A stretch of 64,000 bases of DNA from an uncultured Bacteroidales bacterium (GCA_902801485.1 CADCIP010000010.1:25465-89464), one strand, 5' to 3'. Positions 57,266 to 63,944 are shown, numbered from the stretch's first letter. Translations and numbers: made by a program. The notes: generated by a model not told the origin, from the sequence alone.

Positions 57266-58573
57266 TTAATTCAGTTCCACCGTTGGATTATCCAGATCCC
57301 AATTTCCTAACTGGTACAGGTAGGTGGGTTTTAGGGTCAGTTTTATTGTATATTTTTTACCTCTGTCCAGGTATGGAATGCTGTTAAACAGTCTATACAT
57401 ATCTATTTTGTTTTCCACTATGCTATTCTTTCTGATCAGATGCTCATCACTTCTGTCATAGACATCATAGGTGCTGCGCAGCATATAGAAGTTGTTTATG
57501 TTGGGTACTACGTAGGCGTAATCCACATTATCTGTGTATTTTAATTCCTCTGAGTTTGCCACCGTTCCAGATGGAATCTCCACCTCGCCATCAAAGAATG
57601 TTATGAATGGCATAGGGTCACCAGTAGCGTTTTGTGAGAAGGTGATACTCGTGATGGGCGATGTTCCACCTGTTGCATCATCGTTAGCTGTCAGCGTTAC
57701 GGTAGCGTTAATTCCCTTTCGCTTCATAAGCGTGTTGTCATCATCGCTATTGTATGACGAATATCCCCTCAACTCCAATTTCTTCAACTTTATTTTACGC
57801 AGCGCTGCGTAAGTGTCATCAACATGGAACTGGAAGTCTATAGCAGCGTACAGGTGCTCAAAGAGCATGAAGAGGTAGTTGTGCGTATCAGCTCCGTTGT
57901 ATATGGTACAGGAGAAATCTCCTCTTCTTAGGGTCTTTTCGTCTGCGATTTCTGTGGCCGATTTACCCTCTTTCGCTCCCACCAGAATGCAAATATCTTC
58001 ACCTGATACGCTACCCATATTATTGAGAGTAAGTATAGCACCATTATCATATGAACTGTTAGGAGCAACAGAGGATGCCCCTGTCGCCTCATTTGGCGAG
58101 AAGCCATAGAGATACTGTATGCCAGCAGGTGCCTCTTTATCAATAATCCATTTGTTGGGAGTGGTGGTAGTATAATACCAGATATGCCGTTGTTCGACGG
58201 TTGTTGAATAGGTAAAGAATGCGCCAATAGAAGAATGCTTTATAGGTTCATAATAACCAGTAGGTGGTGTCCATTCATCAGCACGTGTCCCAGTGCTCTC
58301 CACATCCTCATAAGGTGCCAAGTAGCTCATTATCTGCACGGGAGCACCCTGCTCCTCAGCAGGTGGAACCTGCTCTGAGGAGCAGGAAGAGAAAATGAAG
58401 GCTGCGATTAAGAGAGAGGAGAGCCAAACTAGTTTGAGCTTTCCCGAACGTGAGCAGGCTCGACCGAAGGTCAAGAATGAAGAATGAAGAGTGAAGAATA
58501 GGCATAATATGCTCAGGCTCATGGATCTCATGGGCTTTATAAGCTTGCTTATTATGGTCTTTATTCTTCTCAT
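57266..58573 (-). CDS. Fimbrillin (Mfa-like, type V pilin)-family lipoprotein, 435 aa, with an unusually long N-terminal leader
   Basis: Lipobox ..AAFIFSSC at Cys64, then ..STGTRADEW (Arg97). An internal LYAAIDFQFHVD-type strand and overall beta-rich composition resemble the neighbouring pilin-like genes. Confidence 0.7.
   Translation of the reverse strand: MRRIKTIISKLIKPMRSMSLSILCLFFTLHSSFLTFGRACSRSGKLKLVWLSSLLIAAFIFSSCSSEQVPPAEEQGAPVQIMSYLAPYEDVESTGTRADEWTPPTGYYEPIKHSSIGAFFTYSTTVEQRHIWYYTTTTPNKWIIDKEAPAGIQYLYGFSPNEATGASSVAPNSSYDNGAILTLNNMGSVSGEDICILVGAKEGKSATEIADEKTLRRGDFSCTIYNGADTHNYLFMLFEHLYAAIDFQFHVDDTYAALRKIKLKKLELRGYSSYNSDDDNTLMKRKGINATVTLTANDDATGGTSPITSITFSQNATGDPMPFITFFDGEVEIPSGTVANSEELKYTDNVDYAYVVPNINNFYMLRSTYDVYDRSDEHLIRKNSIVENKIDMYRLFNSIPYLDRGKKYTIKLTLKPTYLYQLGNWDLDNPTVELN
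58472..58499. repeat. In-CDS heptamer repeat [CG]AAGA[AG]T x4, the same family (opposite orientation) as 924-944
   Basis: caagaat gaagaat gaagagt gaagaat. Encodes LFFTLHSSFLTF in the leader of the 435-aa protein. Confidence 0.85.
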
Positions 58574-58582
58574 TTTTTTTTG

Positions 58583-58686
58583 CTAGGCTAGCTAGTTTAA
58601 CTAGTCTCACTAGTTCTAACTAGGATTTGTTCAACCGTAAACCGTAAACGGTAAACTAATTATAATTTTTCACTTTTCACTTTTCA
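58583..58686. repeat. CTAG-word repeat, AAC[CG]GTA x3 and [TC]TTTTCA x3 blocks in the spacer between the 376-aa and 435-aa genes
   Basis: Read directly. The families are the same as at 13064-13117 and 14384-14432. Confidence 0.9.
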
Positions 58687-58704
58687 TTTTTTGCTGTGCA
58701 AAAA

Positions 58705-61917: not shown

Positions 61918-61957
61918 CGAGGCACCGGCCTCGATTTTTCTTTTTTCTTTTTTCTTT
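61918..61957 (+). terminator. Hairpin CGAGGCaccgGCCTCG followed by a T-rich tract. It looks like an intrinsic terminator, but it is oriented for the plus strand, antisense to the operon
   Basis: 6-bp GC stem with a 4-nt loop, then atttttcttttttcttttttctttt. Confidence 0.4.
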
Positions 61958-61995
61958 TGGTAGCCCGTTGAGGAGTCGAACCTCAACGAGCTTGT
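61958..61995 (-). other. tRNA 3'-end fragment (T-arm + acceptor 3' strand + CCA). Not a complete tRNA
   Basis: The minus strand reads ..cgTTGAGGTTCGACTCCTCAACGGGCTACCA. It has a GGTTCGACTCC T-loop/stem signature followed by 7 nt + A + CCA. No matching 5' acceptor strand (AGCCCGT) lies upstream. Confidence 0.6.
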
Positions 61996-62006
61996 ATAGG
62001 GGGGGG

Positions 62007-63944
62007 TTAAGAATTTGCTTTAACCTTGATTATCTTGATGTCATATTCACCTGCTGTACCAGCGGCTGTCATCGTATACAGGTTAGCCTTGTTAGCTTCA
62101 AAATTTGCTTCGTTGATACCTGCTGCAGGATAATAAACATTTTCAGAAGTCTTGAAATAGTAGGTCGCAGTAGTACTATAAGCAGCTTCTCCTACAGCGG
62201 CATATGTCGGAGCAGTATAAGGTGTGCGAGTAAACACATATACATAAGTGGCATCGGATGTCGTTGAAGGTGTGAACTTAACGGCACCGTTAGATCCAAA
62301 GTCGAAGTTTGTTCCATCAGCGGCAGGAACGTTCTGAACAAGAGTTGCAACCTCACCATCTGTAGTAGCCGCCAAAGTAATACCGTTGGGAGAACCTGTC
62401 AAACGAGCCTTGACAGTAGCTTCTGAGATCGCATCGCCTGTTGTCGTAGCTTTATAAACCTGTGCATTGTTAGTTGCCTCTCCAATAGCAGTTGGAGCAG
62501 CTACTACTGCGGGATTAGCAGCATTGTTCATCTTTACGACATAGATAGTCTCGCCTGATTTGTATTCATTGTTAGTTGTAACATCAGAGCCATTTGCATA
62601 GGTTGTAATTGAGTAATCTTCAAAGTTGGTGATGGTTTCTTGAGTTTTATCATCAGCAACAGCAACTACAACAGCGTCGAAGGTAATTGGATAAAGTCCC
62701 TGTACAGTACCATCAGTAGTACCATTGGTATTAGGAGCAATCTTGAAGATGTAGGTATAAGCAAAGTTACTCTTCCACTGTACATACTGAGTGGGAACTA
62801 CTACTTTTGCGCCCAGCACATGTATAACCTCACCACCACCATCTTCAGCAGTCAATGTGTAGTCAACCTTAACTAACATGGGGTTGGAAACTGCAGAACA
62901 AGGATAAACCGTTGTATATTCACCTATTGATGGACTACCTGACTTTGGAGTATCCCAAGTTGGCGTAGCTGATGATTGTGACAAGGTTGTGTTAACCACA
63001 CCACTTCCAAGTTCTAATGAATAATTATAATCAACGGTAGTTGGTGTTACTTTTACCTGATTCTTAATATCAGCTACTGCATCATCATTGTATGTAATGG
63101 TTAGCGTATTACTTGCGGCACTCTTGTTGATGTTCTGAAGAGAAGCTGCAAAATTAGTTTTTTCATTTTCCATAGCACTAAAAGAGGTAACAGGAGCTGT
63201 TGCGGGAGTAGCTGTAGTGCTTGCGTCACTATCAATATAGAACTTATTAATCTTTACAGAATAACCTGGAATTGTCTCATAGAAACCGACACGAACACGA
63301 GCACCGAAGTTACGGAAGGTCAAAGTAACAGGCTTGTTGAAGTCTCCTTTTTCAACAGGCTTGCGGTCTGCAACGAACAACTGGTCTAGGTTAGCGCCGC
63401 TACTAAGTACAACGCTATAGCCTTTGTCATAGACAGTGCTACCCGAAGTGGTTTTTGTGACAGTAACTTTGTTGTTGGTTGCAATGTCAGCCTTAGAGGC
63501 AATACCATAAAAAGTATAGCCCTCAGCTGCGCTGTAGTCCCAATACTTAATTGTTTGTGAGGTAGCAGCAGGAGATACTTTTGCATCTACATAAGGAGTG
63601 AGGCCAACGTAATCCCAGTTGTGAGTGTTGGACAATTTTGTTCCTGCAGAGTTTGCTGTATATTCTACTTTGTAGTTCGTAAATACAGCCATATCGTTAG
63701 TGGCATTTGCAGCCTCAGCAGAAGTATGCTTTGTACCATAAACGATGAACTGGTTCTGCAACTTTTCAGCAGCACTTTCACCTACAAGGTTTCCTGCACG
63801 GGTACCGTTCTGCATGTCGAAACCAAAGGTAATCGCACCAGAACCGGTGACATTCCCTTCTTGGTCTCCCATGTAGGTGTTCTCTGAGCAAGCGGCAAAT
63901 GCTAATATTGCCGTTGCAAGGAATAATTTGTTCTTCATGTTCAT
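62007..63944 (-). CDS. Fimbrillin-family lipoprotein, putative major (stalk) type V pilin paralog A, 645 aa
   Basis: MNMKNKLFLATAILAFAAC (Cys19), AITFGFDMQNGTRAGN (Arg49), QTIKYWDYS, VTLTFRNFGARVRVGFYETIPGYSVK, YTYIFKI. Collinear with the 642-aa paralog. Confidence 0.8.
   Translation of the reverse strand: MNMKNKLFLATAILAFAACSENTYMGDQEGNVTGSGAITFGFDMQNGTRAGNLVGESAAEKLQNQFIVYGTKHTSAEAANATNDMAVFTNYKVEYTANSAGTKLSNTHNWDYVGLTPYVDAKVSPAATSQTIKYWDYSAAEGYTFYGIASKADIATNNKVTVTKTTSGSTVYDKGYSVVLSSGANLDQLFVADRKPVEKGDFNKPVTLTFRNFGARVRVGFYETIPGYSVKINKFYIDSDASTTATPATAPVTSFSAMENEKTNFAASLQNINKSAASNTLTITYNDDAVADIKNQVKVTPTTVDYNYSLELGSGVVNTTLSQSSATPTWDTPKSGSPSIGEYTTVYPCSAVSNPMLVKVDYTLTAEDGGGEVIHVLGAKVVVPTQYVQWKSNFAYTYIFKIAPNTNGTTDGTVQGLYPITFDAVVVAVADDKTQETITNFEDYSITTYANGSDVTTNNEYKSGETIYVVKMNNAANPAVVAAPTAIGEATNNAQVYKATTTGDAISEATVKARLTGSPNGITLAATTDGEVATLVQNVPAADGTNFDFGSNGAVKFTPSTTSDATYVYVFTRTPYTAPTYAAVGEAAYSTTATYYFKTSENVYYPAAGINEANFEANKANLYTMTAAGTAGEYDIKIIKVKANS

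Follow-up and report, generated by a model that had tools for sequence, protein, structure and literature searches.

Among Bacteroidia, in which they are widespread, type V pili constitute the principal adhesive filaments, and to our knowledge they have been studied almost only in Porphyromonas gingivalis and a few gut Bacteroides. In P. gingivalis, the pilin FimA is cut at Arg46, and Mfa1, which carries a Cys at position 20, is cut between Arg49 and Ala50 (PMC8512630, PMC13655056). The Mfa5 protein has a type IX secretion system (T9SS) C-terminal domain, needs T9SS export to join the fimbria and is encoded by tandem genes in some strains (PMC8512630). Here we analyse a stretch of 64,000 nucleotides (nt) from an uncultured Bacteroidales bacterium (GCA_902801485.1, CADCIP010000010.1:25465-89464; hereafter the window) and, in particular, four consecutive lipoprotein genes, A–D, at 57266–63944 on its minus strand. 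We give a probability of roughly 75% to the reading that A–D encode type V (that is, FimA/Mfa-type) pilus subunit precursors of an uncultured rumen Prevotella, situated in the middle of an operon that runs from a DUF3575 barrel to a protein of 4,447 amino acids (aa). That the four are type V pilin precursors, as an earlier note on this DNA had proposed from the sequence, finds good support in their fold, their homology, the conservation of the motif and the context of the operon.

Gene A (62007–63944) encodes a 645-aa lipoprotein precursor in which a pilin core (residues ~1–405) is followed by a C-terminal module of ~230 aa. Gene B (59935–61863) encodes its 642-aa paralog (34% identity over 602 columns, E 2e-69, BLASTP), and the collinear motifs that the earlier note had listed for this pair (NTY.GDQ.G, TANSAGT.LSNT.NW.YV, QTIKYWD, FYETIPGYS, YTYIFKI and PITFDAV) all recur in the alignment. 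Gene C (58705–59835) encodes a 376-aa type V pilin precursor that is distantly related to Mfa_like_1, and gene D (57266–58573) is a 435-aa open reading frame (ORF) for a lipoprotein of type V pilin fold whose family has no Pfam model. The intergenic gaps A–B, B–C and C–D are 143, 99 and 131 bp. Residue numbers are counted from the longest ORFs; the start of gene C is probably Met14 (at 59796), and that of gene D is uncertain, the record holding a 418-aa version from Met18.

The same note had remarked that each of the four proteins carries a lipobox Cys followed 30–33 residues later by T-R-A. With all residues of its table re-derived from the DNA, this holds: Cys19 (codon 63888–63890) precedes T-R-A at residues 48–50 (63795–63803) in A, Cys22 (61798–61800) precedes T-R-A at 61702–61710 in B, Cys32 (59740–59742) precedes T-R-A at 59644–59652 in C and Cys64 (58382–58384) precedes T-R-A at 58280–58288 in D, with Cys-to-Arg distances of 30, 31, 31 and 33, all on the minus strand. 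Within the first 110 residues, a PROSITE PS51257-type lipobox pattern has a single match per protein, ending at these same cysteines (19, 22, 32 and 64). The predicted prodomains accordingly span 63798–63890 in A (Cys19 to Arg49, CSENTYMGDQEGNVTGSGAITFGFDMQNGTR, with a predicted cut at Arg49/Ala50), 61705–61800 in B (Cys22 to Arg53), 59647–59742 in C (Cys32 to Arg63) and 58283–58384 in D (Cys64 to Arg97), again on the minus strand. The predicted mature N-termini after the Arg are Ala50 in A (AGNLVGESAAEK), Ala54 in B (AEKVGADAADILGNQ), Ala64 in C (AGSTPLQNTGVTSFR) and Ala98 in D (ADEWTPPTGYYEPIK), so that Arg49, Arg53, Arg63 and Arg97 provide concrete predicted cleavage sites that can be checked by metaproteomics.

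Conservation was assessed in alignments of diverse homologues (60 for the A family, drawn from clusters at 50% identity, 51 for the C family and 60 for the D family). Both the lipobox Cys and the Arg are invariant throughout, that is, in 60/60, 51/51 and 60/60 sequences, respectively. The residue before the Arg is Thr in 54 and Ser in 6 members of the A family, and Thr in 46/51 and 55/60 members of the C and D families; the position that follows holds Ala (43), Gly (8), Ser (5) or Thr (3) in the A family and Ala (46) or Ser (5) in the C family. Cys-to-Arg spacing is 28–35 in the A family, mostly 27–40 in the C family and mostly 31–58 in the D family, the loosest of the three; the conserved feature is thus T-R-small after the first strand and not the exact spacing of 30–33. 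Acidic residues at positions +2 to +5 after the Cys, which are known as a surface-export signal for Bacteroidales lipoproteins (PMC12632263), occur in 58/60, 45/51 and 59/60 sequences of the A, C and D families.

The predicted folds of C and D are those of type V pilins rather than of some unrelated family. An AlphaFold2 model of C (predicted local distance difference test score (pLDDT) 77.4) matched 35 chains of the PDB at E <= 0.001 in Foldseek, all of them type V pilins, including FimA (6jzk, 4q98 and 6kmf), Mfa2 (5nfi), Mfa3 (5nf4), Mfa4 (5dhm) and Bacteroides structural-genomics pilins, and the model of D (pLDDT 81.8) matched 23 chains at the same threshold, again all type V pilins, as are its best 25. 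In both models the Arg lies within a loop of pLDDT <50 directly after the first β-strand (VIAFS in C and APVQIMSYL in D), the same arrangement of anchor strand and cleavage loop as in FimA (Arg46) and Mfa1 (Cys20, Arg49/Ala50). For the larger proteins, the A-family and C-family profiles align in hhalign with a probability of 100% (E 2e-46, 314 columns), and given that residues 10–405 of A span the whole C profile, A and B consist of a C-like pilin core plus the ~230-aa C-terminal module. The D-family profile aligns with that of C (96% probability, 55 columns) over the strand that connects the two domains, and the A-family and D-family profiles show no significant match to one another. Curated models are matched by homologues of C only (13/51 match Pfam Mfa_like_1 (PF13149) and 4/51 Mfa_like_2 (PF15415), best E 8e-13), so that membership can be claimed at the level of superfamily or fold but not beyond. 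In the A and D families (60 members scanned for D), no protein matches a fimbrillin Pfam family. Weak, below-threshold matches to DUF1256, DUF3939, YyaC and WGxxGxxG, the only ones found for the four proteins and their family profiles, were treated as chance.

These results also bear on the reading that takes the Cys...T-R-A pattern for chance, or for a motif of structural significance alone, in proteins unrelated to pili. Although such a reading would sit well with the lack of any direct Pfam, NCBIfam or PDB sequence match for A–D, we regard it as very improbable, as the Arg is invariant in three families of 51–60 diverse sequences each, the structural matches are exclusively to type V pilins and homologues of C match Mfa_like_1; together with the A/C profile match, the Mfa_like_1 matches, the Foldseek results and the Arg conservation contradict it.

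The genomic setting extends the argument from single proteins to a system. The window ends 56 bp upstream of A, and a contig with an identical A (L001) shows what lies beyond: a third A-type paralog, an antitoxin/ParE pair, a 394-aa DUF5119-like lipoprotein and a 522-aa DUF3575 outer-membrane barrel. The third paralog (L001 4145–6040, just beyond window position 64000; 631 aa, ...LASC...AMTR/AD) is 52% identical to A, and the tandem ~640-aa array is thus an array of three genes that is cut by the window. A scan of one genome per species gave 340 stretches with A-type relatives, and 76 loci were fetched. The carriers are nearly all uncultured Prevotella, Prevotellaceae and Bacteroidales of cattle, sheep, goat, deer, yak, buffalo and horse, and the locus runs in the order DUF3575 barrel, DUF5119-like lipoprotein, 1–5 tandem ~640-aa pilins, 376-aa type, 435-aa type and a protein of >4,000 aa. 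Among informative loci, DUF3575 and then the DUF5119-like gene stand upstream of the first A-type gene in 49/51, an A-type gene is followed by a C-type gene in 54/60, A, C and D occur in this order in 47/60, and a + strand ORF of at least 1,000 aa follows directly after the D-type gene in 31/37. In terms of size, the A family comprises >7171 clusters at 90% identity in public metagenomes and 925 at 50% identity, and the figures for the C and D families are 711 and 920, all unnamed proteins.

Within this gene order the cleavage motif is unevenly distributed. A [TS]R[ASGT] site 21–69 residues after the Cys is found in 162/175 A-type, 34/38 C-type and 23/32 D-type proteins, and in 0/54 of the DUF5119-like lipoproteins, which share a fixed C-terminus (...GGSGFDAVVKDxEDGGTHEFEM). 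As anchor pilins of type V systems lack the Arg site and stay lipidated (PMC8512630), the absence of this site and the fixed C-terminus suggest that the DUF5119-like lipoprotein is anchor-like.

Combining these observations, we envision that each precursor would be exported by the Sec pathway, lipidated on its lipobox Cys and cut by signal peptidase II, with the acidic residues just after the Cys directing it to the cell surface. There, an Arg-specific surface protease may cut the flexible loop that follows the first β-strand, between the Arg and a small residue (Ala in all four), which by analogy with FimA Arg46 and Mfa1 Arg49 would remove the lipidated anchor strand and open the groove. The DUF5119-like lipoprotein, with its fixed C-terminus and no Arg site, would remain lipidated and anchor the filament, whereas the giant protein at the end of the operon, judging from its position and a weak C-terminal domain match, may be exported separately by the type IX system and join a distal complex in the manner of Mfa5.

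For the protease in this scheme, the most likely candidate is a C11 enzyme that is clostripain-like, of the fragipain type, with a gingipain-like enzyme as the alternative. We know of no gingipain in these organisms, and no protease gene is present within the window, the other genes of which concern rhamnose use, a V-ATPase, polysaccharide synthesis, an outer-membrane barrel and YfhO. In Phocaeicola vulgatus the processing protease has been reported as unidentified (PMC12940148), and in Bacteroides the surface clostripain-like fragipain, which has orthologues across the phylum, has been named as the pilin-processing enzyme (PMC12632263). Given fragipain processing in Bacteroides, a clostripain-like C11 lipoprotein is the first candidate here, ahead of a gingipain. 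The earlier suggestion of a gingipain-like protease was too narrow as to the type of enzyme.

Several observations weigh against the pilus-precursor reading of A–D. None of the four matches any Pfam or NCBIfam fimbrillin model (PF06321, PF13149, PF15415 and PF08842), and neither they nor their family profiles match a PDB sequence. The template-modelling (TM) scores of the Foldseek matches are low (0.25–0.46), probably because of domain orientation and insertions, although the matches are confined to one fold family. The pilin fold of A and B is drawn from profile alignment to the C family, and the ~230-aa C-terminal module of A matches neither the pilin core, nor the other families, nor any Pfam domain (one long relative has a single Big_2 match). 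On the side of the partners, the window holds no protease gene, the DUF5119 match is sub-threshold (25.3 bits versus the 27 bits of Pfam), and profile comparison of the DUF5119-like family with the A, C and D families gave no significant match; the T9SS type A tail of the giant protein is likewise sub-threshold (TIGR04183, E 7e-4, 19.5 bits versus a cutoff of 23), and searches of Pfam and NCBIfam found no von Willebrand A domain in this protein, unlike Mfa5, although some Mfa5 genotypes also lack that domain (PMC8512630). Finally, all carriers are uncultured metagenome-assembled genomes, so that the proposed pilus is known here from genes alone.

This last point leaves room for a reading in which A–D would be surface lipoproteins of pilin fold that do not polymerise, the Arg serving as a shedding site at which a clostripain-like protease would free them from the cell or into vesicles, or the proteins themselves forming a surface dock for the giant secreted protein. 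Proteases of the fragipain type are known to release many Bacteroides surface lipoproteins (PMC12632263), and some lipoproteins that resemble pilins serve other roles, an example being PG1881 on vesicles (PMC11225709). The locus, however, holds a complete set, that is, an uncleavable anchor-like partner whose C-terminus is fixed and cleavable subunits with fixed C-termini in a strict gene order over dozens of species, which is what strand-exchange assembly needs and more than shedding requires, and we consider the non-polymerising alternative improbable.

Within the preferred pilus-precursor reading, the A-type genes stand out by their variability. In a closely related strain (locus L088), protein identity to the present locus is 97.7% for the DUF3575 barrel, 99.7% for the DUF5119-like lipoprotein, 95.2% for C and 97.8% for D, whereas for its three A-type proteins, of 534, 549 and 621 aa, identity to the three found here is no more than 31–39%. 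DNA homology breaks sharply ~78 nt into the first A-type gene and returns in the last one (gene B), ~28 nt short of its stop codon, near window position 59963, so that the swapped block covers L088 3062–8558 and L001 4222–10332 (in the window, from about 59963 onward). Given flanks that are 95–99.7% identical, the A-type block, including A and B, with gene B closing it, constitutes a hypervariable cassette in a conserved operon. In a large protein collection, the nearest non-identical relative of A is 73% identical, compared with relatives of C at 99, 97 and 90% and of D at 98 and 89%. The cassette can be likened to the genotypes of fimA and mfa1 and is in keeping with the component that is most exposed; such a swap at strain level marks an exposed, probably ligand- or phage-facing, part of the pilus.

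Which part of the filament these paralogs would form is less clear-cut. The earlier note took the two ~640-aa paralogs for alternative or co-polymerising stalk subunits, and this is not established, as the extra C-terminal module and the variable ends also fit tip adhesins. The A-family core is complete (...YTYIFKI, PITFDAVV, a D-G turn and QETITTV) before the ~230-aa module begins. Tip pilins typically carry an added C-terminal ligand-binding domain and lack donor strands (PMC12632263, PMC13655056), and they have been described with a last core strand that is not terminal and an added C-terminal module (PMC12632263); as the A family shares this layout, the two roles, tip or adhesin and stalk, are of similar probability. 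We place the stalk role of the ~640-aa paralogs just short of even odds and the tip or adhesin role slightly below that.

A different assignment of roles within the same pilus type, to which we give a substantial but less than even chance, would accordingly cast A, B and the third copy as alternative tip or adhesin pilins, each of which caps a filament, and the 376-aa protein, possibly with the 435-aa protein, as the polymerising stalk. It draws on the complete A-family core followed by the module, on the range of A-family lengths (550–1,070 aa) with differing last strands and tails of ~1–29 residues after the last conserved strand, and on the swapping of the cassette between near-identical strains, as expected of a ligand- or antigen-facing part. 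It also draws on C, which is similar in size to FimA (precursor of about 380 aa) and whose family ends in (Y/F/H)NW in 51/51 sequences (YNW in C itself); the last 16 residues lack order in the model of the monomer, which is what one would expect of a donor strand. Against it, the A-type genes come first among the cleavable pilin genes, ahead of accessory-sized ones as mfa1 and fimA do, and are the largest of them; Mfa1 itself is large (563 aa), and in most of the ~640-aa members a conserved Y-x-V-K-V-I-K-V strand, which could be a donor strand, is followed by no more than 1–3 residues at the C-terminus. Major stalk subunits are, moreover, hypervariable across strains as well, as the fimA and mfa1 genotypes show (PMC8512630). 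Terminal residues matter greatly in Mfa1, in which the loss of even one or two abolishes polymerisation (PMC13655056), and the D family also has a fixed ending in 106/114 sequences (DLDNPTV plus 2–4 residues).

The operon closes with a giant ORF. G1 (43767–57110, minus strand) lies directly downstream of D, has a conserved ATG at 57098 and a signal peptide (...VYG/Q), and encodes 4,447 aa; full products of 4,069–4,304 aa are found in other lineages. It is conserved as the final gene of the operon and takes the place that belongs to Mfa5, which is much shorter, at about 1,200 aa. By eye, its C-terminal end (...GTYIVNKKKLYIK) resembles the usual T9SS tail, and it has no PDB sequence match. A second giant ORF, G2 (20142–42752, minus strand; 7,536 aa), follows 1,014 bp downstream of G1 with a signal peptide (...VWG/Q); it has no detected T9SS tail, its CHB_HEX_C_1 and Fn3_assoc domains are the only Pfam matches of both giants (no von Willebrand A domain), and it is a possible member of the pilus system. 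Gly, Thr and Asn abound in both proteins, which contain recurring ...GGN/GGG... motifs, and three Bacteroidetes-type TAnnTTTG motifs in the 1-kb gap before G2 (42779–43109, minus strand) are possible internal promoters.

D and G1 further share a 23-nt leader (ATGAGAAGAATAAAGACCATAAT, encoding MRRIKTI) at the starts of their ORFs (58551–58573 and 57076–57098, both minus strand). The two copies are identical, with 92% identity between the starts of D and G1 over a stretch of 50 nt, and the same leader is present in the DUF5119-like gene (L001 about 1990–2070). Tandem CGTTA/CGTTG hexamers precede G1 and the DUF5119-like gene, and repeats of the ACTAG-/ACGGTTT-type lie upstream of D. A general N-terminal signal was rejected as an explanation, as the leader did not turn up at the loci of other species (one regular-expression match in ~450 ORFs of six operon families (L009–L084) and none in ~3,450 others); the shared leader could be a regulatory or translation-start element, or the product of gene conversion.

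Taken further, the conserved last gene and the cassette suggest a specialised type V pilus operon, present in dozens of rumen and hindgut Prevotellaceae species, that would display a T9SS-exported, β-helix-like protein of >4,000 aa at the end of the filament (that is, a scaled-up Mfa5), with 1–5 pilins of ~640 aa as a swappable cassette of alternative adhesive or antigenic subunits. We offer this wider model only tentatively, as one that is rather unlikely to be right; if true, the system would be a hybrid of pilus and T9SS display by which the bacteria attach, in the rumen, to plant fibre or to other cells.

Some features of the locus and its surroundings stand apart from these questions. In the C/D intergenic region (58574–58704, minus strand) are short tandem repeats, namely GAAAAGT twice followed by GAAAA, and TTTACCG/TTTACGG three times, and a TAnnTTTG-type Bacteroidetes motif (TAACTTTG, 59873–59880, minus strand) lies 37 nt upstream of gene C as a possible internal promoter; scans for promoters and terminators gave counts no higher than in shuffled sequence. 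In different lineages, small unrelated genes are inserted between those of the operon (L001 3439–4100, L005 13841–14617 and L007 8835–9338), namely the antitoxin/ParE pair, a four-helix protein of the 23S_rRNA_IVP type and a PDDEXK_3 protein, and three gene calls (P0188, P0199 and P0227) fuse the 23S_rRNA_IVP protein to a C-type pilin. Eight loci (L018, L019, L025, L028, L038, L069, L080 and L084) are filed as Faecalibacterium, Oscillospiraceae, Lachnospiraceae, Bifidobacteriaceae, Spirochaetota or Gemmiger, and these operon contigs were probably mis-binned rather than transferred. Elsewhere in the window (966–19007) are genes for an acyltransferase/glycosyltransferase fusion, a polysaccharide flippase, V-type ATPase subunits D and I, a CarboxypepD_reg outer-membrane barrel, a rhamnulokinase-like FGGY kinase, RhaA, RhaT, a class II aldolase and YfhO.

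In the literature searched, no paper describes this locus, and its place is best seen by comparison with the systems that have been described. The Mfa system of P. gingivalis (mfa1–mfa5) shares with it lipoprotein precursors (with Cys20 and an Arg49/Ala50 cut in Mfa1), a fold of two β-sandwiches (PMC8512630, PMC13655056), a first subunit of large size (Mfa1), a pair of smaller accessory pilins and, with the DUF5119-like lipoprotein and G1 as putative counterparts, an anchor that stays lipidated and uncleaved (Mfa2) and a last gene product exported by way of a type IX C-terminal domain (Mfa5, in tandem in some strains). Unlike in Mfa, the anchor-like gene here precedes the pilin genes, a DUF3575 barrel heads the operon, 1–5 tandem ~640-aa paralogs carry an extra C-terminal module, the last gene encodes 4,000–4,450 aa with no von Willebrand A domain and there is no sequence-level match to Mfa1–5. 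With the FimA system (fimA–fimE) the locus has in common a predicted prodomain (Cys19/Arg46 in FimA), the proposed protease-mediated strand exchange and the fold, whereas the fim cluster has no T9SS partner and sequence identity is only 8–13%.

Gut Bacteroidales pilins provide the best structural matches (BF2867, 4h40; BACUNI_00621, 4k4k; BACEGG_00536, 4gpv; and BVU_2522, 4qb7; E 1e-8 to 1e-6), and these pilins and the phase-variable Mfa1 fimbriae of Phocaeicola vulgatus have the same lipobox and conserved basic residue, with processing by a protease other than gingipain; the stretches examined here showed neither an invertible promoter nor a recombinase. They differ in that the A and D families have no Pfam model and that the present operon ends in a giant protein. 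Similarly, Mfa_like_1 and Mfa_like_2 of Pfam are matched by some homologues of C, but not by C of the window or by the A/B and D families. The pilus type is thus already known, and no current model recognises the A and D families. As these proteins are annotated as hypothetical, their identity as pilins would give a function to a large block of the dark matter of rumen Prevotellaceae and link pilins to a conserved giant secreted protein; the more interesting aspects of the locus are the giant gene conserved in last place and the pilin cassette that can be swapped.

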